The notes under the pieces were generated by a model, which saw only the letters and a list, made by a program, of their open reading frames with translations, did no database searches and had not been told where the DNA came from. This document shows, piece after piece, positions 34,790-59,717 of a DNA stretch of 64,000 nucleotides (position 1 is its first letter; each line of letters begins with the position of its first letter). The stretch is taken from the NCBI GenBank assembly GCA_014729085.1, contig WJKM01000006.1, forward strand, positions 16,152-80,151. Direction: 5' to 3'. The position numbers were made by a program, and so were the translations under genes. This stretch comes from Candidatus Dojkabacteria bacterium (GTDB taxonomy: Bacteria > Patescibacteriota > Dojkabacteria > B142 > WJKM01).

Positions 34790-36310
<1,521 letters not shown>

Positions 36311-37602: not shown

Positions 37603-37677
37603 GGGGCTGTAGCATAGCTGGTCTATTGCGCTTCATTTGCAATGAAGAGGTCGCGGGTTCGAATCCCGCCAGCTCCA
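37603..37677 (+). tRNA. tRNA-Ala (TGC)
   Basis: Acceptor GGGGCTG/CAGCTCC with G3:U70 identity pair, anticodon loop TTTGCAA, T-arm GCGGG-TTCGAAT-CCCGC, discriminator A. No encoded CCA. Confidence 0.88.
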
Positions 37678-37725
37678 TTTTGCAAACAAGAGAATTTCCC
37701 AATACACAAGAAAACTAATGAGATG

Positions 37726-43592: not shown

Positions 43593-43620
43593 TTGATATA
43601 TTTTTAAATTATAGTATAAT
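43593..43620 (+). promoter_or_regulatory. Sigma70-like promoter (TTGATA-16-TATAAT) with TTATAGTATAAT box
   Basis: Read directly upstream of the 43650 ORF. Confidence 0.45.
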
Positions 43621-43649: not shown

Positions 43650-44672
43650 ATGGGTCATCATGAATTACCACTATCTGTTCAAATAGCACAAGACACAGAA
43701 CCAGACTCCGAACTGTATTCTCCCGATTTGATAGATACACCCCAAGAATTAGCAGAATATAAAGAGTCTAGATTTATTACAATGCTTCCAGATTATGTAG
43801 GTGATCACATAATAGGGGAGATAGATAAGAATGGAGATGGAATACCGGATAATAATGATGGTGATGGGATGCCTGATTATGCAGAGAGGTATATTCTGGA
43901 GTCTATATCAGGAAGTAATCCTGGATTTGTACTTGTTGATGTAGATTGGGATTCTTTGGTAGCCAGTTATGATATGTCTGGATTTTCTGTATTTGAATCT
44001 GAGGATGGCACCAAACTAAATTTAATTAGTTCAGATTCTCCCCAAGTTAATATAAACGGAGGTTATTTAAATGAAATAATTGGCAAGATAAAAGAATCAG
44101 GGATTGCTTTAACCCCATTTGTTAGACATGAAGATGGTCGTGCTCAAATTTATAATATAGAATTTGATTGGGATAAGAATCCATGGTTATGGTTATATGA
44201 AGATCAGGGCGAATCCGTTCCGGGTGGTGCTTTTCCAGTATATATCGGATCAGAAGTTGTACCTGATTTAAGTAGTAATGTATGGCAAGAAGAAGGGCAG
44301 GAAGCCTTTTGGGATCAACTTTCGTCTGATGATTGGAAGGATATTAGATTTTTATCTGGTACTTTGTTAGGTTATGCCCCAGACTGGAGGTATGTTTATG
44401 AAGATCAGACTATGTGGGAAGAAGCACTGGATATTGCAACAGGCATTGTAGCGTCTCAGGAAGAGTATTTTAATTATGAAACATACATGACTTCATTTCC
44501 CAATCTAGATGAACAGACATCTGAGGGATCTGGTGAGAATGTTGTTCAAGGATACTATTTAAGTGCTGATTTTGGAGGATTGGGAAATGAATCTACTATT
44601 CAAGCAATGAGTAGAGAACCCCTTTCTTACTTTACTGGCATGGAACCAGAGGAGTTAGTTTTGGATGATTAA
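43650..44672 (+). CDS. Acidic protein with thrombospondin-type-3-like Ca-binding repeat
   Basis: DKNGDGIPDNNDGDGMPDY (DxDxDG-type Ca-binding repeats). pI strongly acidic. Confidence 0.55.
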   Translation: MGHHELPLSVQIAQDTEPDSELYSPDLIDTPQELAEYKESRFITMLPDYVGDHIIGEIDKNGDGIPDNNDGDGMPDYAERYILESISGSNPGFVLVDVDWDSLVASYDMSGFSVFESEDGTKLNLISSDSPQVNINGGYLNEIIGKIKESGIALTPFVRHEDGRAQIYNIEFDWDKNPWLWLYEDQGESVPGGAFPVYIGSEVVPDLSSNVWQEEGQEAFWDQLSSDDWKDIRFLSGTLLGYAPDWRYVYEDQTMWEEALDIATGIVASQEEYFNYETYMTSFPNLDEQTSEGSGENVVQGYYLSADFGGLGNESTIQAMSREPLSYFTGMEPEELVLDD

Positions 44673-44701
44673 AATAGTATTTTATTCATTTAAATTAATT
44701 A

Positions 44702-44730
44702 TTGACTAGTTAGTAATCTTATAGTATAAT
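44702..44730 (+). promoter_or_regulatory. Consensus sigma70-like promoter TTGACT-17-TATAAT containing the ATCTTATAG box
   Basis: ttgactagttagtaatcttatagtataat read directly, about 30 nt upstream of the 44761 ORF. Confidence 0.55.
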
Positions 44731-44760
44731 TTATATATATTAAATTATTAATTTTTTCAA

Positions 44761-45219
44761 ATGGCTAACGAACAGATGCAAGTTCCTGAGAGGAAAAGTA
44801 ATACCGCTGCTTGGACAGCTGGACTACTTGGAGTTTTAGGACTTTTGTATGGAGGTGCTGAAGCTGCAAATTATGTTAATTTGATACCTGGTAATATGCT
44901 TAGGGACAGATTTGGATATGATGTAAAAGACGATCCTTGGGTTAATTTTCATGAGGTAACACATGATCTAGACGATGTCGAGTTTGTTATTGATCCTGAT
45001 GAGGACACATTTCTAAGTGCAAGATTTGATGAGGCTGGGCAAGATGTTGAACTTACTTGGGTATTTGATGTTACAGATGATGATGTTGATGATTTAATTG
45101 AGATGGACGGAAATGAGATAAGGTTTGATTTTGGAAATGATGGTAGTTTCGAATATGTCGGGGTTGATGAGGATGGAGACGGTACAATCCGAGGAGATGA
45201 GATTTCAAAACAAGAATAA
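44761..45219 (+). CDS. Acidic secreted/anchored protein, member of the N-terminal hydrophobic-helix paralog family
   Basis: N-terminus AAWTAGLLGVLGLLYGGAEAANYVNLIPG. Acidic C-terminal part with DEDGDGTIRGDE EF-hand-like loop. Confidence 0.55.
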   Translation: MANEQMQVPERKSNTAAWTAGLLGVLGLLYGGAEAANYVNLIPGNMLRDRFGYDVKDDPWVNFHEVTHDLDDVEFVIDPDEDTFLSARFDEAGQDVELTWVFDVTDDDVDDLIEMDGNEIRFDFGNDGSFEYVGVDEDGDGTIRGDEISKQE

Positions 45220-45301
45220 AATTCCAGAAACAAAAAAATATAAAAGAAGGTGCTTTAAAAAAGCACCTTTTTACTTTTAAAATGTATTTTTTATTGTGTG
45301 A

Positions 45302-45694
45302 TTAGAATTCGGGTTGAACAATTTGATTTTTCAATTTAACTGCCACACCAGAAGCCTTGGTCCAGGCCATTTCGCCGACTCCGAAATTATTTTGCATTTC
45401 AAAGTCAAGAATTGCATTTGCGCCAAGATTGTAGGCTTCTTCTAGAAGCTCGTCCAATGCTTGCTCTTCCGTTGTCTTGTGTCTTTCTTCATATTCACTT
45501 ATACGACCACCTGTTAAATTTTTAAGCCCTGCAAAAAATCCTTTACCCAGACTCACTCCCTGAATGCTAACACCACTAACGTATCCTAAGATTTTTTCGA
45601 TTTGATCAAGTTTTATATCTACTGTGAATGGGGCAATAAGGGCTATTTCGTTTTTTGGTGTTCTATATTCTTGAACGGGTGTTGTTTCATTCAT
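45302..45694 (-). CDS. YbjQ/UPF0145 (DUF74) family protein, paralog 1 (start at internal ATG; ORF opens 45751)
   Basis: ISGVSLGKGFFAGLKNLTGGRISEYE...LGANAILDFEMQ...GVAVKL pattern typical of the YbjQ_1 domain. Confidence 0.65.
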   Translation of the reverse strand: MNETTPVQEYRTPKNEIALIAPFTVDIKLDQIEKILGYVSGVSIQGVSLGKGFFAGLKNLTGGRISEYEERHKTTEEQALDELLEEAYNLGANAILDFEMQNNFGVGEMAWTKASGVAVKLKNQIVQPEF

Positions 45695-45719
45695 TTTGAC
45701 CGAATTATCTATTAATAAT

Positions 45720-45887
45720 TTAAAAATCATCAAATTCATCGATAGGTGCAAGCATAAAGCCCGTAGCTATAATTAATGCTCCTACCAGTGCTGCAACACC
45801 ACCATAGGTAATGCTTTTTTCCCAAAACCCCTTCGGATCTTCATCACTATCTCTAATATAGCGATAATCAAATGTATCCTGTTCCAT
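45720..45887 (-). CDS. Candidate 55-aa membrane micropeptide between the two YbjQ paralogs (MEQDTFDYRYIRDSDEDPKGFWEKSITYGGVAALVGALIIATGFMLAPIDEFDDF)
   Basis: Hand-translated minus-strand ORF with one TM segment. Not in the ORF track (under 60 aa). Confidence 0.35.
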   Translation of the reverse strand: MEQDTFDYRYIRDSDEDPKGFWEKSITYGGVAALVGALIIATGFMLAPIDEFDDF

Positions 45888-45903
45888 TTGATAAATAGTA
45901 GAT

Positions 45904-46296
45904 TTAAATTACTTGCTTTTCATCTTTAAGTACTGCGGCTACTCCTTCAGCTACTGCTTTTATAAGAAGATTCCCTGTCTCAAGATCTCTAATTATTTCG
46001 TCAGTAACGTCGAAATTTAAGATGGTATTTGCTCCAAGTTTTTCGGCTTCTTCTCGAACACGGCCTACAGCCTCTGTATGAGCCTGTACATATTCTTTTT
46101 CCAGTCCTTTTACTCCCCCACCAATTACTTCTCTTATACTTGCTTCCACTTCTCTAAAAAACCCAAGATCTCTAATTGAAATTCCCGCAACAGACCCTTT
46201 TACTTCCTCTATGTCGTAAGCCTCAACTAAGACCCAAGGGGGAAGTAATTGGATTTCACCTTCGGGTGAGGTAGGCCTAGTAAGTGTTTCTTCCAT
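45904..46296 (-). CDS. YbjQ/UPF0145 family protein, paralog 2
   Basis: GISIRDLGFF...LGANTILNFDVTDE...LIKAVAEGVAAVL, same family as 45302..45694. Confidence 0.65.
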   Translation of the reverse strand: MEETLTRPTSPEGEIQLLPPWVLVEAYDIEEVKGSVAGISIRDLGFFREVEASIREVIGGGVKGLEKEYVQAHTEAVGRVREEAEKLGANTILNFDVTDEIIRDLETGNLLIKAVAEGVAAVLKDEKQVI

Positions 46297-46331
46297 ATGT
46301 ATATATTTAAAAAAAATATAGTAAATTAATC

Positions 46332-46514
46332 CTATGGTTCGATCGTAGTTGTAGTAATGACAGTTTCCTCAGAGTACATCTCAATACCGGTTTCGGGATC
46401 AAAAAGTTCTGTATATGTGGTTTTAACTTCAACATCTGGCTCTTTTGTTTTCTTGAATGGCTGTTCAGGTTCTTTTTTATCAGTTTTTTGTATATCGTTT
46501 TGTTTTTCTTTCAT
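46332..46514 (-). CDS. Small hypothetical protein
   Basis: 60 aa ORF co-oriented with the YbjQ pair. Confidence 0.3.
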   Translation of the reverse strand: MKEKQNDIQKTDKKEPEQPFKKTKEPDVEVKTTYTELFDPETGIEMYSEETVITTTTIEP

Positions 46515-46724
46515 GTGTATATAAAAAGTAATATGTTAAAACCTATAATATTATATCATTAAAGTAAAAATTAAAAAACCATATTGTAAAACGAGTTGAA
46601 TTAAAAATCGAGATGGAAGTTGAATATATTAAATCAATCAACTATAATTTGCCAACCTATATTTTAGTTTTGATTTTAGGTATACTTAAGAAGTTAAGGT
46701 ATTTAATATTTTTTATAAATTCAT

Positions 46725-47297
46725 ATGACAAATTTTAATGAGGTTTTTACTAAATGGCTGGCGTTTTTTGAATCTGCAGACGAGACAAAGAAGGATGTTT
46801 TTGAGTCTATCCATCCTGAAGTTAAAAAAGGTTTTGATGTTGTCACTAGGGTATCTAAAGAGGAAATACAGGCTTTGCTAAATAATGAAGAGTTTTTGAA
46901 AAAAATAGAGCAAAATTTAATCCGATTATTAGCATTTTCGGTTTTCGGTGGGTATATGTTGTTTTGTATAAGAAAAGGAATCGACCCAGTAAAGGAATCT
47001 TTAAAAGACAACGAAAATGTAGCGAAAGTCGGGAACTCATGGATGGAGGCATATAAACAAGATAATTTTAAAAGTCTTATTCAGTCTATTGAGCCGTTAG
47101 TGGTATTGATGGTTGAGAAAGGGAAGCAGGCAAGAATGAATCAATTGATTATGTCTTTTCCAGAGATCATGAATTTGAGTTTCAAGGATGGTTTGCAAAT
47201 AGATAAATTTATGAGATGGGCAGGACTTCAAGGCTATATTTTAGGTATGTTGGAACAGGAATTAATTAAAGGAAAGGGAAATTTAAAGGAAGCATAA
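46725..47297 (+). CDS. Hypothetical protein
   Basis: 190 aa ORF, no motif recognised. Confidence 0.45.
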   Translation: MTNFNEVFTKWLAFFESADETKKDVFESIHPEVKKGFDVVTRVSKEEIQALLNNEEFLKKIEQNLIRLLAFSVFGGYMLFCIRKGIDPVKESLKDNENVAKVGNSWMEAYKQDNFKSLIQSIEPLVVLMVEKGKQARMNQLIMSFPEIMNLSFKDGLQIDKFMRWAGLQGYILGMLEQELIKGKGNLKEA

Positions 47298-47332
47298 AGA
47301 CATTGTTTTTTGCATTTTTACCCTAATAATAT

Positions 47333-48199
47333 ATGGAGTCAGAGGGTGAACTTAACATCATTCATCATGAAAAGGGTGATTTTTTAGAAGAAACAATAGG
47401 AAAGTTACTTGCTGTACCTTTTCAACATTTGACTTCTGGTACTTTATCGAGTGCTTTCAAACGAATTCCACCTGAATCGGTTGAAAGATTGAAAAAAACG
47501 TTTGAGGATGTTGAATGGGAAGGAGATATTGAAGTGCATTTGAATCACTCCCCACTTTTTAGGCAGCTGAAAAGGCTTTTTGAAAAAGAAAGGCGTGCTT
47601 CTCTTTTTTCGCGGATTGTTGTAGGCCTCCCTTTAACTGTTGCTACTAATATATTCAGCAAACTTACAAATGCAAATAATTACAACCCCTACACAGAAAC
47701 TGTTCAACTTTTTAACGAAAATATCTATACTAATATTACCGGAGTTGCATTAGCAGAAGAGATTGACCAAACTGAAGAGCCGATAAAAAGGGAAGTCAAA
47801 AGCCTTTTAACAACAATTCCCTATTTTTTAAGTTCTATTGTTAATTGGAAGGCTAAAGAACGGGCGATGCAGCATTTAAGTCCTGAAGAAAGAAATGAAG
47901 CTTTCCAGTATTTAGCTACAGGTAGTGTGAACGATATAATAATTGATAGTTTGACGTTATTCGGTGTTTTAGCTGGAATCTCTACATTTCTTCCTGATTT
48001 TGATTTGTCAACCGAAGCTGAACTCGGAATAGCTGGGGCAACCGCCGCTGGAATATATGGGTATACTCAATTAATTAGGGAGCCTGATGAATTAGGCTCA
48101 AGTATATTCTTCGATCCTAATAAGGAGATATTATTAGAAAAAAACAAGAAAAAGAAGATGAAGGATCGGGAAGTTTTTAGTCTAGATGTGAGTATATAG
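47333..48199 (+). CDS. Hypothetical membrane-associated protein
   Basis: 288 aa ORF with hydrophobic segments (FSRIVVGLPLTVATNIF; IIIDSLTLFGVLAGISTFL). Confidence 0.45.
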   Translation: MESEGELNIIHHEKGDFLEETIGKLLAVPFQHLTSGTLSSAFKRIPPESVERLKKTFEDVEWEGDIEVHLNHSPLFRQLKRLFEKERRASLFSRIVVGLPLTVATNIFSKLTNANNYNPYTETVQLFNENIYTNITGVALAEEIDQTEEPIKREVKSLLTTIPYFLSSIVNWKAKERAMQHLSPEERNEAFQYLATGSVNDIIIDSLTLFGVLAGISTFLPDFDLSTEAELGIAGATAAGIYGYTQLIREPDELGSSIFFDPNKEILLEKNKKKKMKDREVFSLDVSI

Positions 48200-48293
48200 G
48201 AATTATAAATTATGAACAGGGAGTACATATTGGTCAAATTAAAAAGATTATGAGATACTTAGATTGATAATTAATTAATTTATATCTATCTTT

Positions 48294-49115
48294 ATGCATT
48301 CAGCACCTGAAGCACAAGTTCCAGAAGAACTTACAAAAAAAGCGCAGGAACAACAAAAAGAGCAAAATGGCGAAAGGGAACAGGAGGCTCAGAAAACTGA
48401 AATGCCTGTAGAAGAATTGGTTAAGAGACAAGAGGGGATGATAGGAAAAATTGTTAAGTGGATTAAAGGTTTTGAGGCACAGGATGCTAAACGAAGAATC
48501 CAGGAAATTAAGGATAAAGAACATTATGATAAGTGGAGAAAAAAAATTAAGCAGGTAGAGAAGAAATGGAGGGATGGCACAATGCTTAGGAATACAGCAA
48601 TTAATCTGGCTGGATATTTTGCATTATTGATTGGTATTATTAATCCTTTAGCAGCTGGTCCATTAAGTGCTTTTTTTGCAGCTACAAAAATCCCACCTTT
48701 TTTTATAGCGTCATTAGTAAGAGGTACTCCTCCATGGAGAAATCTAGAAGGCAAGATTAGAGAGTTTTTTGATAAAAAAAGAGATGATTATCAGGAATAT
48801 CAAAGCCTTTTAAATCAAAATCCAGATAGTCCTACTAATAAAAGAATTAGGCGAAATATGGTTCGTTTTGAAGAGGCGGCTAAACGTGCAAAAGAAAGAA
48901 AAGAGAATGCAGAAAAAAATGGAGAGGAAAACCAAGACCAGGAAGCTGCATCGGAAGGACAAACAACTGGACAACAGACACAGCCTAAAGCTACAGAAGT
49001 TTCACAAGAACAAAGAAGACCGCAAACAAAAGAGGATCAGATACAAGCTATTCAAAACAGAACTGATATTCCGGAAGATGTAAAGGAAGCATTGGTAAGG
49101 GCTTTACGTGGTTAG
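48294..49115 (+). CDS. Hypothetical membrane protein with K/E-rich tails
   Basis: 273 aa. Central TM pair (INLAGYFALLIGIINPLAAGPLSAFFAATKIPPFFIASLV). Confidence 0.45.
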   Translation: MHSAPEAQVPEELTKKAQEQQKEQNGEREQEAQKTEMPVEELVKRQEGMIGKIVKWIKGFEAQDAKRRIQEIKDKEHYDKWRKKIKQVEKKWRDGTMLRNTAINLAGYFALLIGIINPLAAGPLSAFFAATKIPPFFIASLVRGTPPWRNLEGKIREFFDKKRDDYQEYQSLLNQNPDSPTNKRIRRNMVRFEEAAKRAKERKENAEKNGEENQDQEAASEGQTTGQQTQPKATEVSQEQRRPQTKEDQIQAIQNRTDIPEDVKEALVRALRG

Positions 49116-49165
49116 TTTGGCTTTGAAGATTTTTGGCTAATAAGTTTTAATATATTACAAAAAGT

Positions 49166-49600
49166 ATGAACTTAGAATTTCTTGCAAATACATTAGCGTT
49201 AACATCAACTCCTCGTGAGGAGATAGCTCAGTATGTAGCTGAATATTCTAAAACAGTAAGTTTATGTGCATTTGAGGCGGTAATGGGAGAACTTGACCAG
49301 ATGGAAGACAATGAGAAATTAGGGGATTTAGTCAATTTAGTTGGAGAACTGCATCAGCATAAAACAAGTTTAGATATTGCAGATGAAGAAAAGACAAAAG
49401 CATTTTATGACAGGTTTGAAGTTTTGATGAATTCGGTTATGGAGTTGCCTGAGGCAGAGAGAATAAAGGAAAGGATTGAGGAGGAAATAGATGCATTAGA
49501 CCAAGAAGTTGTTGACGAAATAATAGCAAAATGCACAGAAGAAGATAGAGAGAGAATATTAGAAGCTACTCAGGCGGTCCTTCAGGCCACTGAAGAATAG
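49166..49600 (+). CDS. Acidic hypothetical protein
   Basis: 144 aa, strongly acidic. Confidence 0.4.
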   Translation: MNLEFLANTLALTSTPREEIAQYVAEYSKTVSLCAFEAVMGELDQMEDNEKLGDLVNLVGELHQHKTSLDIADEEKTKAFYDRFEVLMNSVMELPEAERIKERIEEEIDALDQEVVDEIIAKCTEEDRERILEATQAVLQATEE

Positions 49601-49770
49601 AAGATTTCTGGAAAAACTTGGGAAATACATTAGAGCAGAGTGCATCATTCACAATTTCTATGTTTAGATTTACTATTAAATGAGATATCTGAATGTTTTA
49701 ATAGGTTCTAAATAGTTGAATTTCTGACTCTAGTGGTTTATAGTAAATTAGGTAGATAAAATTTTAATCT

Positions 49771-50088
49771 ATGCTTATGGGAGAGATAGATCCTGCCCAA
49801 TCAAAAGAAAAAAGTATAAAAGAGCATTTAGAAGGGGGATGGGCTTCTAAAGTATTGGAATGGCTGAAAGAGGATGGAGGCAAGAATTTACTCTTGCTCG
49901 GTTTAACAGTTCCGCTTGCGAATTTATTAACAGGAGGGGCCTTATTTGATGTTGTCGAAGGTGGGGCAGATACTTTAGCTGATGGAGTTGGAATGGTTCT
50001 AGAGGAAGGTGAGGAAGGAACAAGAGCAATACTTGAAAAACTTGGTGGTTTCACAACCAATTTAGCAGAAGAGCCCGCTGGTCCTTAG
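49771..50088 (+). CDS. Small protein of the N-terminal helix paralog family
   Basis: GWASKVLEWLKEDGGKNLLLLGLTVPLANLLTGGALFD shares the W..K.N..LLL.G...A.NL module. Confidence 0.45.
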   Translation: MLMGEIDPAQSKEKSIKEHLEGGWASKVLEWLKEDGGKNLLLLGLTVPLANLLTGGALFDVVEGGADTLADGVGMVLEEGEEGTRAILEKLGGFTTNLAEEPAGP

Positions 50089-50139
50089 ACGTAACAATTT
50101 GTAAGAAAACTTTATTAATTTAAATATAAACTAAACAGT

Positions 50140-51144
50140 ATGGAAACAAGAGAAACCCCACTTCCACCAGCAAGGGAAAGACCATTTGGAGAAAAGGTAA
50201 AAGAAGATGCAAAAGGAATTCTTGGAGGTCTAAAGGAAGGTATTAAAAAATATCCAGGAATTGCATTATTAGTTGGGCTTGGATCACTTGCTGGACTTGA
50301 AGCATCAAGTATTTTGGATGAACCCTTAGAAGAAGCTGGTATTGGAGAAGGGCATGGACTTGCTACTTTAGACGAGGCCCTAATGCAGGATGATGAATAT
50401 ATAGCAGAATTAGAAGCAGAAGGATTGATTATGAGGAAAGGCGAGGAATTCAATGGCGAGACTCTGGAGACTGATGTGGTGGTTTTTGATCCAGAAGAAC
50501 CTGATGCTGCTGTTAAAGAGTTAAATACATTTAATCTATTTTCTCATTGGCTTGGAGAGACTAGCTGGTTTGGTGAAAATGTTATAGATCCGATCGAGGA
50601 TGCTTTTGATGAGGAATCTGCTGAACCTACAGAACCTGTAGAACCCGCAGAACCCGCAGAACCTGCTGAAGTTGCTACTACAAGATTTTCTAATTTCACA
50701 TTTGCAGAATTCCTAGAGGAGTATCAAAGCCATTTAGATAGTGGTGGAGCTTTAACTGGTTCTAATAATTTAGTAACAGAATTGCAAAACGAAATGTCTC
50801 GACGAATTCCTGATGAATTTGAAGGGCAAGAAGCAAACTTAAGAGAAATGTGGGATCAGATCAATAGCTTGGAGAGGGATCTTAGTAGGGCACCAACACC
50901 GGAAGCTCAAGCACAAATAGACCTATATAAGCTTTACTTAGAAGACGCATTGGGTCCTGAACCAGGCCAATTGGAGAGTATTAGACAACTAGAGACCGAA
51001 CTTGCAGATCTTCAGACAGAATTAGACGCAATGGGAGACCCACAAGATGACGTAGAGGCTTGGGCATACGGTAATTTACAATCTCAGATACAAGGAAAGC
51101 AAGATGAACTAGATGCTATATTCAATCCTGCAACAGGAGAATGA
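50140..51144 (+). CDS. Acidic protein with EPxEP repeats, paralog family member
   Basis: N-terminal GILGGLKEGIKKYPGIALLVGLGSLAGLEAS. EPTEPVEPAEPAEPAE repeats. Acidic. Confidence 0.5.
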   Translation: METRETPLPPARERPFGEKVKEDAKGILGGLKEGIKKYPGIALLVGLGSLAGLEASSILDEPLEEAGIGEGHGLATLDEALMQDDEYIAELEAEGLIMRKGEEFNGETLETDVVVFDPEEPDAAVKELNTFNLFSHWLGETSWFGENVIDPIEDAFDEESAEPTEPVEPAEPAEPAEVATTRFSNFTFAEFLEEYQSHLDSGGALTGSNNLVTELQNEMSRRIPDEFEGQEANLREMWDQINSLERDLSRAPTPEAQAQIDLYKLYLEDALGPEPGQLESIRQLETELADLQTELDAMGDPQDDVEAWAYGNLQSQIQGKQDELDAIFNPATGE

Positions 51145-51194
51145 GAATAAGGATCTTTGTGTATTAGACTAATTTATTGCCTTAACTTATTAAA

Positions 51195-52352
51195 ATGACA
51201 GAGTTCGAAAGAACAATTACAGAAGAAGAACCTCAACCAGAAGAAAGAAAGACATTAGGGCAGAAAGCGAAGGAATTTTTAGATAAAAACATGGCTAAAT
51301 TCCTTGGTGTTGCAGCAGTTGCCGGTCTTGGTGTTGCAGAATACTACGATCTTTTCGGAGTGGATTTTACTAGTTTTGATGAGGTTGCACTTCGCGGAGA
51401 ACCCCCCGAACCAGATGCAGAAAATTTATACGACGAGCCTTTTGATTTAGCTGAAGATGCTGAATTTACGGACAGGTTTGCCTATTGGGTAGAGCATTTC
51501 TGGCAACTTAATCCCTTTAAAACGCCAGTTGCAGCGGAACCTTTGCCAGATGGCTTTTCTGATAGTTTTGATGTAGAGATTGAAGGAAATGATAATTTTA
51601 ACGATATATTCCCAAAGACAGAAGATTATGAAGATTTTGAAGAACGGTTCAGCCAATACCTGGAAGATATCTATGAAGGTTTGGAGGATCAATATCAGAA
51701 TGAATATACATCCGCAGAAAGAGCAGCGAAAGCAGCAGGACAGACACTTGACGATGAGACTATTGAGGAGATGAGGGAAACATATATTTGGGGTCAGGAA
51801 TTAGTGCATGATTTTAGGAATGTTAATTCGGTTGAAGACTTCCGGAGTTTTCTTGATGATCTACCTGCGAGCATGATTAAGGATATGGGGAATTCGATTC
51901 CTGAGATATATAGGCTAGGATTGGTAAGCGATGAGCAGTTGAATCAAATTGCCCAGGAGGCTGCTTCTGCATCCTCCACCTTTGGCGGACCAGATCAAAT
52001 TCCGCAACTTCAATATGAGGCTTTTGAGGGACTCAGACAGGTTGGGCGATTTGATGAAGATGCAGATGTTCAAAGATTTTTATATCATCTTTCCGGAACT
52101 ATTGATACGGAACTGCCACCAGGAGACCAAACTGGATCAGAATTTGACCAATTTGATGCCTTTTCAAGCTTGCTGAGAGCCAATAACGAAGATGATGTAG
52201 AGCAGGTTTTACAAGGAGTTGTAAGTCAACTTAAGAGTCAGGATAATTATGGTGGCATATTACATGAATACGAATTTCTTCGAGAATATTTAGGTCTGAC
52301 ACCTGAGGAGTTAGAATTTTTATATCCTTCAGAAAGTGAATCAACCACATAA
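51195..52352 (+). CDS. Acidic protein, paralog family member
   Basis: N-terminal KEFLDKNMAKFLGVAAVAGLGVAEYYD. 385 aa, very acidic. Confidence 0.5.
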   Translation: MTEFERTITEEEPQPEERKTLGQKAKEFLDKNMAKFLGVAAVAGLGVAEYYDLFGVDFTSFDEVALRGEPPEPDAENLYDEPFDLAEDAEFTDRFAYWVEHFWQLNPFKTPVAAEPLPDGFSDSFDVEIEGNDNFNDIFPKTEDYEDFEERFSQYLEDIYEGLEDQYQNEYTSAERAAKAAGQTLDDETIEEMRETYIWGQELVHDFRNVNSVEDFRSFLDDLPASMIKDMGNSIPEIYRLGLVSDEQLNQIAQEAASASSTFGGPDQIPQLQYEAFEGLRQVGRFDEDADVQRFLYHLSGTIDTELPPGDQTGSEFDQFDAFSSLLRANNEDDVEQVLQGVVSQLKSQDNYGGILHEYEFLREYLGLTPEELEFLYPSESESTT

Positions 52353-52460
52353 TTTTTGTTTCTATATAGTAATAATATTTGTCACAGCCCTTTCTATATC
52401 CTTATAGTTTTTGATATAATCACCACATCAAAATTTTTTAAATAAACTCAGGGCAGGTTA

Positions 52461-52489
52461 TTGACCTTTTTACAATCTTATAGTATAAT
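52461..52489 (+). promoter_or_regulatory. Consensus sigma70-like promoter TTGACC-17-TATAAT containing the ATCTTATAG box
   Basis: ttgacctttttacaatcttatagtataat read directly, about 40 nt upstream of the 52530 ORF. Nearly identical -10 region to the 44702 promoter. Confidence 0.55.
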
Positions 52490-52529
52490 TTATCAATTGT
52501 TTATACTTATTTATTAGTTACATACTAAA

Positions 52530-52751
52530 ATGGAACAACAACCACAAGAACCAGGATTTTTAGAAAAAGCATGGAATTGGGCTAAAGATAATTCAACTTT
52601 GCTTCTTTCTATTGTTGGGGCAACTTTGGCAGCAGATGCTGTAAACCTAACTGACATGTGGCCAAACTTTGGAGAAGAAGATGCAGATGATCCAGTTGCT
52701 AGAATTGAAGCTCTTGATTTCTGGGGAAGACCAGAAGATGCTGATGCTTAA
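52530..52751 (+). CDS. Small acidic protein, paralog family member
   Basis: FLEKAWNWAKDNSTLLLSIVGATLAADAVNLTDMWPNF then acidic tail. Confidence 0.5.
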   Translation: MEQQPQEPGFLEKAWNWAKDNSTLLLSIVGATLAADAVNLTDMWPNFGEEDADDPVARIEALDFWGRPEDADA

Positions 52752-52791
52752 TTTTTAATATTTAATAATTTAATTTTGAAATTTTAATATT

Positions 52792-53514
52792 ATGGCAGAT
52801 TATCCAGAACAAAGACCTTCGACCTTAGAGAGAATAGGTGACTGGGTTAATAGAAACAAGGAGGCATTGCTTCTAACCCTTGGTGGTTTGATGACTTCAG
52901 AAGCTATCAATCTTACAAATATAGTACCTGATGATTTTATTAGAAATGCTGTAGAGAATCAGTGGGGTGAAGACGCCTTCATTGATGAGGATCCAATTTT
53001 AGATTGGTTTCCTGAGGATGATTGGGATAGTTTTCAGATTTTTCCTAATATCAATTCTCCTTGGGACAGTGACATTGTTCCTGTTAATAGGGCAGAAAAG
53101 AATTATTATACAAATGCATTCTCGACAGTCGTCGAAAACCAATTCACTGGGGATGATGCAGACGATATAGCCCAAGAAATTGAGGGCTACACTGATGACG
53201 CTCTTGAGTTGGTAATCAATGATAACCCAGATGCACTTGGTACTGCTATAAGTGGTCTGACTGATGTTGATAATCTAGCCGAATATAGAACTTGGGTTGA
53301 AAATTTACCTGATGAGTATGAGGAAGAGTTTACAGCAGCTCTTGCAAGACGAGCACCTGAATCTTTAGAGTTACTTACAGATCAACAAGTTGTAGATCTT
53401 GCAGATGAGTTGTTTGGGGATGAAAGTAGTGAGGTCGAGGATATGGAAAGCGAAGGCGGGTTAGCAGATCAGGCAGAGTTCATAAGGGATGAAGCTATGG
53501 AAGATTTTGATTAG
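52792..53514 (+). CDS. Acidic protein, paralog family member
   Basis: LERIGDWVNRNKEALLLTLGGLMTSEAINLTNIVPDDF aligns with the 52530 N-terminus. Acidic, Trp-rich. Confidence 0.5.
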   Translation: MADYPEQRPSTLERIGDWVNRNKEALLLTLGGLMTSEAINLTNIVPDDFIRNAVENQWGEDAFIDEDPILDWFPEDDWDSFQIFPNINSPWDSDIVPVNRAEKNYYTNAFSTVVENQFTGDDADDIAQEIEGYTDDALELVINDNPDALGTAISGLTDVDNLAEYRTWVENLPDEYEEEFTAALARRAPESLELLTDQQVVDLADELFGDESSEVEDMESEGGLADQAEFIRDEAMEDFD

Positions 53515-53549
53515 AAAAAGGTCAGATTAGATTCGAATCTGAAATTTAA

Positions 53550-53577
53550 AGAGCAGCAGAAATGCTGCTCTTTTTTT
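53550..53577 (+). terminator. Intrinsic terminator
   Basis: AGAGCAGCA-gaaa-TGCTGCTCT followed by T7. Confidence 0.8.
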
Positions 53578-53957
53578 GTGTATTTGAGGTTTTTGTTCGA
53601 ACTAGGAATATTGTTGAGCATGTTTTTAGATGTACTCCCTTGATTGTTACTCAAGATTCCGTTTTACGGCCGGAATGATATAGAGAGATCCGTTCCCGAT
53701 CCCCGCTAGTATGCCACATTGATATTGGATATTGGAGGTATGTAAAAAAGCTAAAAATAACATTAAAGGGTCAATACTCTGAATTCTACGTAACCAAGCA
53801 GAAATGAAGTAAGGTTGATGACTTCTTCCTATGTCATTTCTGTGAAAATAGGAATCTTTCGTCGTTTCAGCATTCAGCTTACTTCAATACCGTTTTTTAC
53901 ACGCAAGCTTCTGGCTCTTCGGCCGGAATAAGATGGGGATTGACGATTTTTTATATC

Positions 53958-54133
53958 ATCTCTGTACGCCCATGTCATCCCTGTATCCCCATGTCATCTA
54001 TATAGCCCCTATGCCATCCCTGTTTTTTTATATCATCCCTGCTTTTTATGTCATCCCTGTTTTTTTTTATGTCCTCCCTATTTTTTTGTCATCCCTGTTT
54101 TTTTATGTCATCCCTGCGAAAGCAGGGATCTAC
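53958..54133. repeat. Tandem array of ~8 copies of a 12-bp unit ATGTCATCCCTG separated by 6-9 nt T-tracts (period ~20 bp), ending in a hairpin TCCCTGC-gaaa-GCAGGGA
   Basis: Read directly: catgtcatccctg..atgtcatc..atgccatccctg ttttttt atatcatccctg cttttt atgtcatccctg ttttttttt atgtcctcccta ttttttt gtcatccctg ttttttt atgtcatccctg cgaaagcaggga. The ORF 53933..54199 in the track is a translation artefact of this array. Confidence 0.75.
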
Positions 54134-54266
54134 CCAGCTTTAACACTCATTTTTCCCCAAGGAATATTAATTGACATATTTCATTTGGCAGAATTATAAC
54201 CTATGAGTCAATGGTTATATAAATTCTGATATAATTTTTTTGATTTTACTTATAATTTTTGGAGTA

Positions 54267-54512
54267 ATGCCTGAGGAACAAACAGTTCTTCCAGAAAGCC
54301 AAAGGACAAGAGACAGCCTAAAAGATAAACTTCTTTTTGCAACAGGTGTAGCTCTAGGTCTATTAACTCATGTTCCCGAGCTGTTAATATCAGGAGCTGC
54401 AGTTACTGGGGGACTATATTTAGCAGGGAAGCTCACAGGAGTAATACCTGAGGATCAGGATTTTAAAACAACAGTAAGGCGGGCTTCGGATGCAATAAAA
54501 GAAACATTGTAA
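54267..54512 (+). CDS. Small protein with central hydrophobic helix (ORF opens 54240; likely start ATG 54267)
   Basis: LLFATGVALGLLTHVPELLISGAAVTGGLYLAGKL. A TGaTATAAT extended -10 sits about 35 nt upstream (54224..54232). Confidence 0.4.
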   Translation: MPEEQTVLPESQRTRDSLKDKLLFATGVALGLLTHVPELLISGAAVTGGLYLAGKLTGVIPEDQDFKTTVRRASDAIKETL

Positions 54513-54644
54513 CAATTTGCAGTTTCTCTACCTTTCTTTTGTTCTGTTTAAGGTACTGTGGTATTATGAATTAAATCAATTTAATATTGATTGTTTATCG
54601 ATTTATATATAGAATAGATAGAATAAGTTTTTATTTGCACTTTA

Positions 54645-54968
54645 TTGTCGGAAACTTTAAATGAAACTGTAAAAAATAACTGGTTTCCTGTGCTTTTAGG
54701 ATTTGGTGGAGCATTGGCTGGACTTCATATATCAGGTGCCATGCCAATTGATGTAACTTGGGAATTTTTTGAGAATGCTGGTGAACGAACAGTCGAAGGG
54801 ATTAAGTATATTTTGGATATTGGGAATCAGCCTCATGAAGTTGCTTTAGAAGGAATAGGATCTCTTCCTCCTGATGAAGTTGATGATTTTCTTACTTGGG
54901 ATAGGATGAATGATTTACAAGCAGCATCGGATGAATTGGCTAATGAATTATCTGTTCCTCAACGATAA
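54645..54968 (+). CDS. Small acidic protein, paralog family member
   Basis: NNWFPVLLGFGGALAGLHISGAMPIDVTW N-terminus. Confidence 0.45.
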   Translation: MSETLNETVKNNWFPVLLGFGGALAGLHISGAMPIDVTWEFFENAGERTVEGIKYILDIGNQPHEVALEGIGSLPPDEVDDFLTWDRMNDLQAASDELANELSVPQR

Positions 54969-55004
54969 ATATAATATTTTAATTTTTAATATTAAATAAA
55001 TTCA

Positions 55005-55448
55005 ATGAAAGAATTAAAAGAACTTTTCGGAAAAATTTTAAATCATCTTGGCATTGTTGGTAAAGAAACTGAAGATATTACTAAAACATTTTTTAATCAA
55101 GTGTATGCGATCTTTATTGAAGATGTATTAAAAAAAGAGCTTCCTAAAGAAACATTTGACCGTAGAATCAAGGAGTATCAGGTTTATATAAAAGAGGGAA
55201 AGCATGAATTAGTACACAAGGATGTAAAACACTATATTAAAAAAGATTCCGGAAAATTGTTTGCAAAGGCATTTTTAAAGCATCTTAAATTCTTCGTATA
55301 TGGCTTGAAAGAAAAAGGGGATGTTACTCAAGAACAAATCAAACAGATAGGTGATATTTTGAAAAACCATATACAGGGAAAGCAGGCACTTGATAAAATG
55401 AAGAATAAAGAAAAGGGAAAAGAAGCTTTAAATACTTTGGCAAGCTAA
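55005..55448 (+). CDS. Lysine-rich hypothetical protein
   Basis: 147 aa ORF, K-rich, no motif. Confidence 0.4.
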   Translation: MKELKELFGKILNHLGIVGKETEDITKTFFNQVYAIFIEDVLKKELPKETFDRRIKEYQVYIKEGKHELVHKDVKHYIKKDSGKLFAKAFLKHLKFFVYGLKEKGDVTQEQIKQIGDILKNHIQGKQALDKMKNKEKGKEALNTLAS

Positions 55449-55650: not shown

Positions 55651-55674
55651 CACCCGCGAAAAGCGGGTTTTTTT
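55651..55674 (+). terminator. Intrinsic terminator (attenuator) CCCGC-gaaaa-GCGGG plus T7, 110 nt upstream of paralog A
   Basis: acacccgcgaaaagcgggttttttt read directly. Confidence 0.75.
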
Positions 55675-55784: not shown

Positions 55785-57587
55785 ATGACAGCTGAAGCTC
55801 AAAAAGAAGGATCACAATATACAAAAATTAATTTTGCCAATAATGAGGCTCCTCCAATTACTAGTACGGAAGGATTAAGTAAGTCTCTAGAAACTTACAA
55901 AATGGTACCTGAAGGTTCTATGATACTTGGAAAGCCGGGGGAAACAGGTATAGTAGTTTTGTCTCCTCAGGGCGAAATTGTAGCAACAGCTAGACATCCA
56001 TGGTTTATTCCTTCTTCTTATGATTTTGCCACAAGAAAATCGGAGTTTTATGGACAACAAAACTTGGCTCATTTGGATACCTCTATGGCATTGACTTTGG
56101 AACCTGAGTATTCGAGGCAGAAAGCAGCAGAGATAGTTAGAAGTGTTAAAGAAAATGGAATTTCTCAGACTTCCAAAGAAACTGGTTGTTTCACCATTGG
56201 TATGGAAGAAGAATGCTTGCATTTTGATAAGGATGGGAATCCAAAAGCATTGCCGGTTGACCAGCAAATTGAACTTCAAGATAATGTGAAAGAGATTCCT
56301 TTGGATCCTACAAATGGAGTGGCATCTGAAGCATTGATTGTTGCAGAGAGCCGTTTGAGCGAAATTGCAGAACATTCGGATTCTACAATTAATAGTACAA
56401 GCTTTTCTATATTAGGAAAGCCTGATGAACAGGGTATGAATTCAAGTTCTGATTATATTCATGCAGTTGCTGGGCACATGTTTGAAAATTACTTTTTCCC
56501 CAAAGATAGTGTTGCAGCTCAATATTGGAATAATATTGCTAAAGAAGCTGGATTTACTAATTTTTATGATATGAGAGATCACGTTAAAGATTTAACACCT
56601 TTGACTTTTGTTGCTTCGCATGTAAGCTTAGGTTTACGAACTGAAAAAACGAATGGTTCATATAACATTGGTCTAGAGGAAGGAATTGCTGTTTCTGATA
56701 TGTTTAATTCGAACTTTGCAACAGTTGCGGAATGGATGACTTATTCTACACCGCTTGCGTTTGGGAACAGACCAGGAGTAATAATAAATGGTGAAAAAAG
56801 ATATCCAAAAGATGCAAGGGCTGTCGGAAGGCTTGGTTCTAGAACCTCTCATGCTGGAGATTTTATTTATACTCCTGAAAATTACAAGTCAAGAGCTATA
56901 GAAGCTATAATAAATGGTTCAGCTGATAGGATTGATAGAGCAGCATATACTTCTTATCACGAGGATTTAGACCAGGATATTGCTAGTGTACATGCAAGAG
57001 TAAGATTCCGCGTAACTGGAGGCTCCGGAGAAGATTATTTCCAGAAACCTTTGGGTAGAGTCGAATTTGTAGGTGGAGCAGCTACTCCTGATATTGTTGC
57101 TTTGGTTGCACGAAATGCGATGGTTAAGTTGATGGGAATAGCTGCCTATGAAGCAGTATCAAACGGGCAGCATCCTGCTGATTATTTTAAATACAAATTT
57201 CCAAGTATGGCAGCTTGCGATGAACATATAGATCTTGCTCATGACTATAATTTTTACGGAGCAGATCATCCAAAAGTTGCTGCTTTATTAGAAGAGGCGA
57301 AGTCTTTCTTAAATTATATCCGTCAGGAGTATAATACTGAGGAAATTCAATATTTAGCAGATTTGGCAGAGGTGGGTTTAAATAAATTGGAGGAACCTAC
57401 AAAAGCGAGAAGCTTAGACGAATATTTAGAAGATCCACAAGGGAATATCTCTGATGTAGTAGCTCATATGTGGGAGGATGGCTATTCAGCTAAAGAGATT
57501 GCAGAGGCGGTCGCGGAATTTGAGAAGCAACAATCAGAAAAAATTATTGAAAATAATGGGGATATCTTAAAAATGTTGGAAAAATAA
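55785..57587 (+). CDS. Paralog A of a tandem triplicated ~600 aa enzyme; tentative glutamine-synthetase/GCL-fold carboxylate-amine ligase (GCS2/YbdK-like)
   Basis: Conserved blocks shared by all three paralogs: GxEEE.LHF strand (TIGMEEECLHF), CASHxSLGLR, GRVRFRVTGGSG, GRVEFxGGxATPD. They resemble the metal-binding ExE strand, His region and R-x-R block of GS-fold amide ligases. Assignment is inference only. Confidence 0.6.
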   Translation: MTAEAQKEGSQYTKINFANNEAPPITSTEGLSKSLETYKMVPEGSMILGKPGETGIVVLSPQGEIVATARHPWFIPSSYDFATRKSEFYGQQNLAHLDTSMALTLEPEYSRQKAAEIVRSVKENGISQTSKETGCFTIGMEEECLHFDKDGNPKALPVDQQIELQDNVKEIPLDPTNGVASEALIVAESRLSEIAEHSDSTINSTSFSILGKPDEQGMNSSSDYIHAVAGHMFENYFFPKDSVAAQYWNNIAKEAGFTNFYDMRDHVKDLTPLTFVASHVSLGLRTEKTNGSYNIGLEEGIAVSDMFNSNFATVAEWMTYSTPLAFGNRPGVIINGEKRYPKDARAVGRLGSRTSHAGDFIYTPENYKSRAIEAIINGSADRIDRAAYTSYHEDLDQDIASVHARVRFRVTGGSGEDYFQKPLGRVEFVGGAATPDIVALVARNAMVKLMGIAAYEAVSNGQHPADYFKYKFPSMAACDEHIDLAHDYNFYGADHPKVAALLEEAKSFLNYIRQEYNTEEIQYLADLAEVGLNKLEEPTKARSLDEYLEDPQGNISDVVAHMWEDGYSAKEIAEAVAEFEKQQSEKIIENNGDILKMLEK

Positions 57588-57887: not shown

Positions 57888-59717
57888 ATGACAACAGAAG
57901 GTAGACCAGAACAGGATAATGGTACCAAAGCAACGAAGGTAAACTTTGCAGTATCTGGCGAACCCATAAACAGCAAGGGAGAGTTAGAATCTTCCTTAAT
58001 GGGGTATGAAATGGTTCCTAAATTCACTACACTTGGAGAACCCGGTAAGACTGGTCTTGCTGTTGTTTTTAATGGAACCGTAGTTTCTGCGATTCGACAT
58101 CCCAAACTTATTCCCTCTTCTTATGATCCTAAGACTAATGAAGTGGAATATTATGGTAAACAAAGCTATAACCATCTGGAAACGTCAATGGCAGAGGCTC
58201 TGGGGGTTGAATATTCACAGGAAATGGCTTCTCGTTTATTACAGCAAATAAAAGAAAAGGGTATAAGGCAAGTTGCCGAAACAACAGGGTTTGGAAAGGT
58301 AGGTATAGAAGAAGAAGCACTGCATTTCAATGCATTTGGAGAGCCATTTAAATTAGATGATGATGAGCAAGTTGAAGTTCAAGATAACGTAAAAGAAGTT
58401 GCGTTATCTCCTTCTCTTGATGTTTTTGACCAAGCTGTGAAAGTTGCTGAAAGCAGAATCACCGAAGCTGAGAAACGTCCTGAAAATATAGTAACAAGTA
58501 CTAGTTTTAGTATGCTTACAACACCGGATGGTATGAGAATGAATTCAAGTGAAATAAATGATATTGGTGCATATGTTAATGCAATAACAACATATATGGT
58601 TGATAATTATTTTTCCCCTAATGATCCGGTTGTTCAAACGTACTGGGACAGCATTGCAAAATCTGCTGGATATGAAGATTTCTATGATTTAAAAGATACG
58701 GTTGGAAATTTATCACCTTTAGCATTTTGTGCATCTCATGCAAGTTTAGGCCTCAGGTCTGAACGTGTGGATGGAAGCTGGGCAATAGGGCTTGAAGAGG
58801 GAATAGCTGTATCTGACATGTTTAATTCAGATTTTGGCACTTTACTTGAATGGATGACGTATTCAACGCCAATAGCGTTTGGGGAAAGATTAGGTACAGA
58901 GGTTGATGGCGAAATAAAATATCCAAAAGATGCAAGAGCAGTTGCAAGACTTGCCTCACGTACAACCTATCCTGGTGATTTTTTGCGAACACCTGAGGAA
59001 TTTAGAAATAGAATTGTTAATAATATGATAAATGGAGTTGCTGATCGAATGGATAGAGCAGCTTATATGCATTATCACGATGATTTGGGTGAAGATGTTG
59101 CTTGCGCGCACGGACGGGTGAGATTCAGAGTAACCGGAGGTTCCGGAAAAGATAAATTCTCCAACCAGTTAGGTAGAGTTGAGTTTACAGGCGGACCCGC
59201 CACTCCAGATATGATAGCCCTGATCTCTAGAGATGCAATGTTGAAACTTATGGGAATAGCAGCATACGAAGCGGTTGCTCACGGAGTACATCCAAGCAAC
59301 TACTTTAAGACTAGATTTCCCAGCATGGCTACATGCAATGAGCATATAGAGCTTGCGCATGCCTATAATTTCGAAGGTCATGAGCACCCTAAGGTTGCAA
59401 ACTTGTTAGCTGAAGGACAAAGCTTCTTAGATTATATGAAGAGAGAATACCCTAATGCAGAAATTGAATACTTGGTAGAATTAGCTCAGTTAGGGCTTAA
59501 TAAATTATCAGAAAGTACTGAAGCAAGAACGTTAGAAGAGTACTTAGATGATCCAAAAGGAAATATATCCGATGTTATGAGTCATATGTGGGAAGATGGT
59601 TATTCAGCATTAGAGATAGCAGAAGCCGTTGCAGATTTTGAAAGAAAGCAATCTCATAAGGTTTTGGAGCATGGTGGGGATATATTAGGTATGGTAAAAA
59701 ATAATCGAGACACTTAA
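57888..59717 (+). CDS. Paralog B of the triplicated ~600 aa enzyme (tentative GS/GCL-fold ligase)
   Basis: Same conserved blocks (VGIEEEALHF, LAFCASHASLGLR, HGRVRFRVTGGSG, GRVEFTGGPATPD). Confidence 0.6.
   Translation: MTTEGRPEQDNGTKATKVNFAVSGEPINSKGELESSLMGYEMVPKFTTLGEPGKTGLAVVFNGTVVSAIRHPKLIPSSYDPKTNEVEYYGKQSYNHLETSMAEALGVEYSQEMASRLLQQIKEKGIRQVAETTGFGKVGIEEEALHFNAFGEPFKLDDDEQVEVQDNVKEVALSPSLDVFDQAVKVAESRITEAEKRPENIVTSTSFSMLTTPDGMRMNSSEINDIGAYVNAITTYMVDNYFSPNDPVVQTYWDSIAKSAGYEDFYDLKDTVGNLSPLAFCASHASLGLRSERVDGSWAIGLEEGIAVSDMFNSDFGTLLEWMTYSTPIAFGERLGTEVDGEIKYPKDARAVARLASRTTYPGDFLRTPEEFRNRIVNNMINGVADRMDRAAYMHYHDDLGEDVACAHGRVRFRVTGGSGKDKFSNQLGRVEFTGGPATPDMIALISRDAMLKLMGIAAYEAVAHGVHPSNYFKTRFPSMATCNEHIELAHAYNFEGHEHPKVANLLAEGQSFLDYMKREYPNAEIEYLVELAQLGLNKLSESTEARTLEEYLDDPKGNISDVMSHMWEDGYSALEIAEAVADFERKQSHKVLEHGGDILGMVKNNRDT

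Follow-up and report, generated by a model that had tools for sequence, protein, structure and literature searches.

The chromosome of Candidatus Dojkabacteria bacterium carries, in the 64,000-nucleotide window of contig WJKM01000006.1 analyzed here, a cluster of 16 genes at 43.6 to 55.0 kb (referred to below as the cluster), half of which encode proteins with a weakly hydrophobic N-terminal module and a strongly acidic tail. Comparison with a second, syntenic locus detected conservation of the module but not of the tail sequence. We propose that these are exported or weakly membrane-tethered, polyanionic, cation-binding surface proteins, which would have grown in number by local duplication and whose tails are drifting or being driven to change, and we put the chances of this interpretation at about even. 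Genes are named by their start coordinate in the window.

N-terminal modules and acidic tails

The module is approximately 45 to 80 residues long and consists of a polar start (Glu, Gln, and Pro); a stretch of Lys, Arg, and Asn, often with Trp; a hydrophobic segment of 12 to 20 residues that is rich in Gly, Ala, and Leu and of marginal hydrophobicity; and an adjoining short motif (e.g., SEAxNLTNxxPD), after which comes the strongly acidic tail. The acidic proteins of the cluster had isoelectric points (pI) of 4.05 to 4.31, with Asp plus Glu (D+E) accounting for 18% to 26% and Lys plus Arg (K+R) for 4% to 8% of residues, and D+E reached 31% within the tails; pI values in the rest of the window ranged from 4.3 to 11.4. 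A whole-proteome salt-in halophile strategy was ruled out by the many window proteins with a pI of 8 to 11. The tails fell on the disordered side of a charge-hydropathy plot and yet were fairly rich in Phe and Trp. A rule for the architecture, set after the data had been seen (a 19-mer starting no earlier than residue 10 and scoring 0 to 7.5 on a crude summed insertion scale, followed by a tail with a (D+E)-(K+R) value of at least 0.10), picked out 8 of the 16 genes at 43.6 to 55.0 kb versus 0 of the 34 genes elsewhere in the window (Fisher p = 2.4e-5). The architecture is real and is clustered in this region. A sequence-only reading of this DNA had described a same-strand array of at least eight acidic proteins; the acidity and the local clustering were borne out, but the eight genes picked out excluded 54267 (two hydrophobic segments and a neutral tail) and included an extra member, 45720-45887, on the minus strand. 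The product of 43650 is acidic and lacks the hydrophobic segment.

The calcium-binding-like loops noted in the same reading were present as single motifs. Gene 44761 contains an exact match to the EF-hand loop consensus, DEDGDGTIRGDE (residues 136 to 147; nucleotides [nt] 45166 to 45201, plus strand), and 43650 contains a loop, DKNGDGIPDNNDGDGMPDY (residues 59 to 77; nt 43824 to 43880, plus strand), in which DKNGDGIPD resembles a thrombospondin type 3 repeat. Neither loop was recognized by Pfam (no model at E <= 1).

Orthologues were located on L001, a 33-kb Logan contig that is syntenic with the window, was reached through a homologue of the 600-amino-acid (600-aa) paralogues encoded downstream of the cluster, and also carries three ligase-like genes. 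The three module genes with orthologues were 52530 (L001 positions 1167 to 1361; 38% identity over 55 aa), 52792 (1401 to 2096, protein P0023; about 50% to 51% identity, over the first 76 to 80 aa only), and 54645 (3102 to 3449; 33% identity over 57 aa). The product of 55005, a nonmember that served as a conservation yardstick, was about 65% to 66% identical over its full length to that of positions 3600 to 4043. In all three module pairs, the N-terminal 46 to 80 residues were conserved, with z scores versus shuffles of 32 (52792), 13.9 (54645), and 10.7 (52530), whereas the scores of the tails did not exceed those of shuffles matched in composition (z = 1.4, 0.4, and -0.1, respectively). Conservation extended to the start region as well as to the stretch after the hydrophobic segment. 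The 51% identity of the 52792 module was similar to the 55% to 65% of neighboring proteins (approximately 55% for the ligase-like proteins and 65% for 55005). These alignments showed that selection maintains the module about as well as the neighboring enzymes and, of the tail, only the acidic composition and not the sequence, and the hypervariability of the tails claimed earlier was thus upheld. An apparent tail homology between 51195 and 52792 disappeared under composition correction (E = 0.08).

Several differences in gene content were observed on L001. The position of 51195 is occupied by a contig-truncated, very acidic protein (positions 2 to 1069) that is dissimilar to 51195, is beta-rich and repeat-like, and has an EF-hand-type loop, DLDENGTIDADE. 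The array is interrupted by two toxin-antitoxin modules (2437 to 3031 and 4127 to 4797; YafQ-like and PIN), and two small proteins with two hydrophobic segments (4943 to 5266 and 5363 to 5641), which the layout of 54267 resembles, lie at a different position than 54267 does in the window. These insertions and shifted genes indicated rapid gene turnover in the region.

Relatives beyond this contig were sought by several routes. Word-indexed homologue searches with 52792 and 51195 gave self matches only (for 51195, among 5.8 billion clusters), and the search with 52792 missed the real orthologue that was later found via synteny. An exhaustive phmmer search of 1.84 billion representatives with 52792 detected one true homologue, P0023 (E = 4e-9; residues 5 to 81); a match to a eukaryotic NACHT-LRR protein was spurious. 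Nothing was found in scans of genome, metagenome, and viral collections with the 55005 and 52792 alignments. The search of related genomes that the sequence-only reading had suggested therefore yielded one syntenic contig with three module orthologues but, with 52792 as the query, nothing else across the 1.84 billion proteins, so that just two assemblies are known to carry the family.

Scans of all members and their neighbors against Pfam, NCBIfam, PHROGs, and PADLOC produced nothing meaningful. Among phage, defense, and structurally solved families, the only matches, phrog_5296 (E = 0.008, with no passing stretch) and Mem_02 (E = 0.0076, obtained with the nonmember 46725), were not significant, and PDB sequence searches with 43650, 47333, and 48294 gave no match. 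A prophage or defense island was rejected, as there were no supporting PHROG, PADLOC, or viral-collection matches. Structure prediction of the module, another of the suggested checks, was uninformative: AlphaFold2 modeling of 52792 without an alignment gave a predicted local distance difference test score (pLDDT) of 40.6, and the model was not used for a fold search.

Relationships among the modules and predicted export

The N-terminal pattern proposed for the array, (W/F)..K.N...LLL..G...A..A.NL(T)..P, was fully present in 52530 and 52792 but not in the other members. Composition-corrected BLASTP detected similarity between these two proteins (E = 1e-4) and between the N termini of 50140 and 51195 (E = 2e-4; N-terminal 61 residues of 50140), and the 49771/54645 pair had an E value of 0.004, which was borderline once corrected for 28 pairs. 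In hhalign comparisons with A8, the profile of the 52530/52792 group, 44761 matched at P = 7e-4 (28 columns, 36% identity) and 49771 matched in register at P = 0.023, and comparison of the 52792 group with the 54645 group gave P = 0.1. Between-group P values were 0.02 to 0.1; the alignments of A8 with four other members were all in the same register, with a Fisher combined p value of 0.005 when 44761 was left out. Shuffling within the start, core, and post-core regions gave a z score of 4.3 for the sum of all pairwise scores and of 2.8 without the best pair. Leave-one-out hidden Markov models (HMMs) returned E values of 0.13 to 25 among 250 open reading frames (ORFs), with four of the eight members not ranked first, and an HMM built from 52530, 52792, and their orthologues did not detect the other members (E > 5). 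Overall, these comparisons supported several small groups of paralogues, namely, 52530/52792 (with the more distant 44761), 50140/51195, and, at a borderline level, 49771/54645; a common origin of all of the groups is weakly suggested. Similarity beyond chance was therefore found within the small groups, but the HMMs missed the remaining members. The paralogy of the adjacent pairs 52530/52792 and 50140/51195 in the module fits tandem duplication, although a single eight-member, tandemly duplicated family, as had been envisaged, was not demonstrated.

The poor performance of the HMMs and the P value of 0.1 between the 52792 and 54645 groups would also agree with a hotspot of fast-evolving or new lineage-specific genes that do not form one family and that resemble each other through generic export signals and an acidic composition favored outside the cell. 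The unlike gene content of the window and L001, which points to turnover, favors such a hotspot, as does the failure of one candidate feature: in the test for a conserved amphipathic helix preceding the hydrophobic segment, only 52530, 52792, and 54645 reached significance, and the orthologues of these three did not. However, two pairs remained significant after composition correction and a third was borderline, the register was shared between A8 and four members, and the start regions were conserved between orthologues. Furthermore, the segments of the cluster have an unusual weak, Gly/Ala-rich character in common, whereas the standard anchors of this genome are rich in Ile, Phe, and Val. We consider a hotspot of unrelated genes unlikely, while keeping it in mind.

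Export was suggested by the surroundings of the hydrophobic segment. Because the flank on its C-terminal side is far more negative than that on its N-terminal side, the N terminus is predicted to lie inside and the tail outside the cell. Glu or Asp together with a small residue generally comes after the segment (AEA, ADA, SEA, LEA, and GVA), with A-x-A-like sites read directly in about six members, and these residues resemble a signal-peptidase site. The module would engage the membrane via the general export route, and the segment would then either stay as a weak anchor, perhaps packing by small-residue motifs, or be cut after the A-x-A-like site. The polyanionic tails would be displayed on, or shed from, the surface of a very small cell, where they would bind cations (e.g., Ca2+ and Mg2+) and remain soluble in brine; the precise order of their residues would be free to drift or be driven to change, and local duplication would have expanded the family. 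A calcium-binding matrix or surface coat, which the sequence-only reading had also put forward, we infer from the composition and the two loop motifs. The four truly anchored proteins of the window were all acidic (pI 4.3 to 5.0). Secreted proteins exhibit the largest pI shift with salinity (PMC6706942), and acidic anchored proteins fit this known shift of exposed proteins in a saline habitat, the habitat itself being presumed. Three Dojkabacteria metagenome-assembled genomes were deposited by a study of a hypersaline mat at Shark Bay (PMC7495880).

The segments were of intermediate hydrophobicity, which was counted in favor of weakly tethered or exported proteins. The best 15-residue Kyte-Doolittle values were 1.5 to 2.0 in the eight plus-strand members and 2.4 in 45720-45887, compared with 2.9 to 3.4 in the four true N-terminal anchors of the window (10315, 12889, 21421, and 30419). 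With the crude summed insertion score, the scale of which has no position terms, eight of the nine segments scored +2.5 to +7 and that of 45720-45887 scored +0.1, in comparison to -1.5 to -5.8 for true anchors and +9.5 to +16 for cytoplasmic controls. Several observations weighed against export. The segments are too weak to count as stable membrane helices. Of the features of a Sec signal, the core is present but weak, and the start regions are not net positive; these regions are also long and as conserved as the post-segment region, which is unusual for cleaved Sec signal peptides. Acidity is not confined to the candidate exported proteins, since 43650 and 49166 are equally acidic without a hydrophobic segment, and the saline habitat that would explain it is, as noted, a presumption.

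The low segment scores, the lack of net positive charge in the start regions, and the acidity of these two neighbors are compatible with cytoplasmic or peripheral proteins, in which the weak segment would serve as an oligomerization or membrane-surface helix and the tails would have an intracellular role, for example, as nucleic-acid mimics, chaperone-like partners, or scaffolds. The toxin-antitoxin modules within the L001 array may be counted in favor of this location. On the other hand, uncharged Gly/Ala/Leu stretches between charges, at a fixed distance from the N terminus and in eight or nine neighboring genes, are typical of export signals, the scans detected no defense, phage, or DNA-mimic family, and the truly membrane-anchored proteins of the genome are also acidic. 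A cytoplasmic location was judged improbable, and export to the surface was retained as the preferred interpretation.

The module was compared with known export signals and with known families of similar layout. Like Sec signal peptides and signal anchors, it has a polar start, an uncharged core of 12 to 20 residues, A-x-A-like small residues, and an acidic early mature region, and, as in Sec signal anchors, the charge difference across the segment predicts that the tail is outside. Unlike these signals, the start regions are long (12 to 39 residues), not net positive, and conserved between orthologues, and the cores, rich in Gly and Ala, fall far short of the genome's ordinary anchors in hydrophobicity. 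An RR pair, which would mark a twin-arginine translocation (Tat) signal, does not precede the hydrophobic segment in any member, and no Tat match was found in NCBIfam at E <= 10. No cysteine follows any hydrophobic segment, so that a lipobox is absent. Type IV pilin or Flp prepilin signals were likewise not detected (no G|F(T/S)L(I/L)E motif and no Pfam match), and the AEYY of 51195 comes after the hydrophobic segment and not ahead of it as in Flp prepilins.

Extended signal peptides with conserved motifs in the start region include YSIRK-G/S and the KxYKxGKxW signal of accessory-Sec serine-rich glycoproteins, and both occur on highly variable surface proteins. The cluster proteins share with them a long leader, a conserved Lys/Trp stretch before a weak, glycine-rich core, and variable mature parts. 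They differ in having another motif and no Ser-rich repeats, no accessory SecA2 or SecY2 genes were seen in the window, and neither signal was matched in NCBIfam at E <= 10 by the nine members and one orthologue. The Vlp, Vsp, and Vsa proteins of Mycoplasma, a host-dependent bacterium with a tiny genome, are encoded in tandem arrays and combine a conserved N-terminal export segment with a fast-diverging, charged external part. The array, the conserved N-terminal segment, and the divergent charged tail are common to both systems, but the cluster proteins lack a lipobox cysteine, the N termini of paralogues are 26% to 34% identical and not near-identical, and the tails have no tandem repeats save the (EPx)n of 50140. 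The magnetosome proteins Mms6, MamG, and MamD are small and clustered, with a Leu/Gly-rich hydrophobic N-terminal segment and an acidic, cation-binding C terminus. The cluster proteins have the same hydrophobic-then-acidic layout and are also small and clustered; they differ in the absence of a Pfam match and of magnetosome genes and in their far longer and more variable tails. Finally, the acid-shifted secreted proteins of saline microbes (PMC6706942) are similar in that exposed proteins are the most acidic class, but that shift is a proteome-wide trend and not a gene family, and it explains neither the module nor the extremes of composition (pI 4.05 and D+E up to 31%). By analogy, the cluster proteins resemble most closely, in their working, signal-peptide or signal-anchor proteins with an extended conserved leader and, as an array, the Mycoplasma variable surface proteins. 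As they fail the testable defining features of each named family, they were filed under none.

Adjacent ligase-like genes and setting of the cluster

Three tandem genes downstream of the cluster (55785-57587, 57888-59717, and 59967-61760) encode 600-aa paralogues that are 52% to 57% identical and that had no Pfam, NCBIfam, or PDB sequence match. An AlphaFold2 model based on a 12-sequence alignment had a pLDDT of 88 and a predicted template-modeling score (pTM) of 0.90, and a Foldseek search with this model matched gamma-glutamylcysteine synthetase (1v4g, E = 6e-8), YbdK, and plant GCL and, more weakly, glutamine synthetase and PafA/Dop. Judging from the model, the paralogues appear to form a divergent branch of the carboxylate-amine ligases that has not been described. 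A genome-collection scan with their alignment found nothing. In one set of homologues (L006 to L008), the 600-aa gene (L006 positions 10001 to 11833) is followed by two glutamine amidotransferase/peptidase C26 genes; this PuuA/PuuD-like pairing suggests, by analogy, gamma-glutamyl small-molecule chemistry. Another homologue (L003 to L005) shares its contigs with genes for an mTOR-like kinase (FAT, PI3K, and FATC domains) and for a HECT ligase, unusual neighbors for a bacterial gene.

The similarity to PafA/Dop and the position of the array next to three ligase-like genes in both genomes raised the idea that the acidic proteins are substrates or partners of these enzymes, with Glu/Asp side chains or termini modified in a manner loosely like that of Pup/PafA. 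The two genomes are related, however, and the common gene order may be plain inheritance; ligase-like homologues elsewhere have no acidic array alongside, and the neighboring amidotransferase genes favor small-molecule chemistry. In addition, the acidic family has no conserved C-terminal motif, and tails outside the cell would not meet a cytoplasmic ligase. A substrate role was considered very unlikely.

The genes of the cluster are native and coding. The ORFs listed in the sequence-only reading were present and correspond to NCBI hypothetical proteins GF362_01490 to GF362_01570; the product of 52792-53514 is identical to MBD3362385.1 (GF362_01560, Candidatus Dojkabacteria bacterium, 152-kb contig). 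Nine of ten cluster products that were looked up are NCBI gene calls, each a singleton at 90% identity, and the exact 105-aa product of 49771 was the only one absent from the protein collection. The window is bacterial chromosome of approximately 35% GC from a metagenome-assembled genome, with one full 16S rRNA gene and three tRNAs. GC content at the third codon position (GC3) was 0.18 to 0.30 in the cluster genes, a range shared with rpoB, rpoC, and other housekeeping genes, with a first-position value (GC1) of approximately 0.6 and the order GC1 > GC2 > GC3. Because GC3 equals the genome value, the raised regional GC is due to amino acid composition (Asp, Glu, Gly, and Ala codons), and a foreign origin was ruled out. 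That the ORFs are not genes or are not expressed is most improbable: most have no homologue anywhere, and no Shine-Dalgarno sites are used anywhere in the genome, so that ribosome-binding sites are of no help in deciding, but the codon-position pattern is that of housekeeping genes, three module proteins and the nonmember 55005 have orthologues in which the N-terminal parts are conserved, the units are bracketed by strong promoter-like sites and by terminator-like hairpins, and no long ORFs compete in other frames.

The first genes of the cluster lie on the plus strand. Gene 43650 (43650 to 44672) encodes a 340-aa protein with a pI of 4.05 and without the module, which is part of the acidic cluster while falling outside the module family. 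Gene 44761 (44761 to 45219) encodes a 152-aa member, distantly related to 52530 and 52792, with a polar start (residues 1 to 15), a hydrophobic segment (residues 16 to 33, AAWTAGLLGVLGLLYGGA), and then AEAANYVNLIPG. The minus-strand gene 45720-45887 (GF362_01505) encodes a 55-aa protein of the same architecture, in which an acidic start precedes the hydrophobic segment YGGVAALVGALIIATGFMLA and the last residues are PIDEFDDF. This gene is flanked by two minus-strand YbjQ_1 (UPF0145) genes (45302 to 45751 and 45904 to 46296), and 45302 to 46296 is the sole opposite-strand block inside the cluster. Four plus-strand genes without the module follow (46725-47297, 47333-48199, 48294-49115, and 49166-49600), of which three have internal hydrophobic segments and one is acidic and helical.

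The remaining genes are also on the plus strand. Gene 49771 (49771 to 50088), a likely paralogue of 54645, encodes a 105-aa member with a 39-residue start region that includes WASKVLEWLKEDGGKN and the hydrophobic segment LLLLGLTVPLANLLTGGALF. The 334-aa product of 50140 (50140 to 51144) has the segment GIALLVGLGSLAGL followed by EASSILDEP, an (EPx)n repeat (nt 50614 to 50670, plus strand), and a helix-rich C-terminal part, and the 385-aa product of 51195 (51195 to 52352) has FLGVAAVAGLGVA, then EYYDLFG, and a long acidic tail. In the 73-aa product of 52530 (52530 to 52751), the module (residues 1 to 46) comprises EKAWNWAKDN, TLLLSIVGATLAA, and DAVNLTDMWP. The 240-aa product of 52792 (52792 to 53514) has a module of residues 1 to 80 (nt 52792 to 53031), with WVNRNKEAL, the hydrophobic segment, and SEAINLTNIVPD, and an acidic tail of residues 81 to 240. 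Gene 54267 (54267 to 54512) encodes an 81-aa protein in which the two hydrophobic segments, LLFATGVALGLLT and LLISGAAVTGGLYLAG, are accompanied by a neutral tail; it has no significant similarity to the members and is not an acidic-tail member. The 107-aa product of 54645 (54645 to 54968) has the segment WFPVLLGFGGALAGL followed by HISGAMPIDVTWEFFENAG, and 55005 (55005 to 55448), the last gene of the 54267-55448 unit, encodes a basic 147-aa nonmember with a pI of 9.5.

Promoter-like sites (11/12) were located upstream of 43650 (43593 to 43620), 44761 (44702 to 44730), and 52530 (52461 to 52489), and terminator-like hairpins were located after 52792 (53548 to 53573) and 55005 (55652 to 55668). 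A 58-nt upstream block that includes TTGAC-N17-TATAAT is present at 44699 to 44756 and at 52458 to 52515, with 72% identity, preceding 44761 and 52530; these genes belong to the same small group, and duplication may have brought the promoter along. The genes at 46725 to 49600 and those at 49771 to 52352 may form one transcription unit, given their spacing and the absence of a terminator-like site. The 750-nt gap between 52792 and 54267, which precedes the 54267-55448 unit, contains a 12-nt box, ATGTCATCCCTG, in nine direct copies (53947 to 54127). The copies are spaced at 18 to 19 nt with T-tract spacers, and the ninth forms a perfect 8-bp hairpin, ATCCCTGC-GAAA-GCAGGGAT. Within the window, the box is enriched only at this site, and it was absent from all fetched loci and had no Rfam match; the array could represent binding sites for a regulator. 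Elsewhere in the window, tRNA-Ile and tRNA-Ala come after the 16S rRNA gene (34790 to 37678), and the rRNA operon is split, as no 23S rRNA gene occurs across the remaining 26 kb.

Significance for the cell surface of the lineage

A further proposal goes well beyond export and is put forward as speculation that we hold to be doubtful. The module may be an undescribed, lineage-restricted export or anchoring device that tethers polyanionic tails, free in sequence but conserved in composition, to the surface of an ultra-small, host-dependent bacterium, and the tails may form a protein coat that buffers cations in the way that teichoic acids do and controls surface Ca2+ in a carbonate-precipitating hypersaline mat, perhaps with modification by the adjacent ligase-like enzymes.

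Candidate-phyla bacteria rely on cell-surface contact with their hosts, and most of their surface proteins have no known relatives. The reach of the present finding is limited, as only two assemblies carry the cluster. Within them, the cluster separates what is kept, a short N-terminal module, from what is released, the sequence of the acidic tail, and it offers a starting point for experimental work on topology, cation binding, and the surface proteome as well as a profile to be sought in new genomes of the lineage. If a polyanionic coat does exist, it would be relevant to cation management by ultra-small, wall-poor cells living in brine and in mats that form carbonate.

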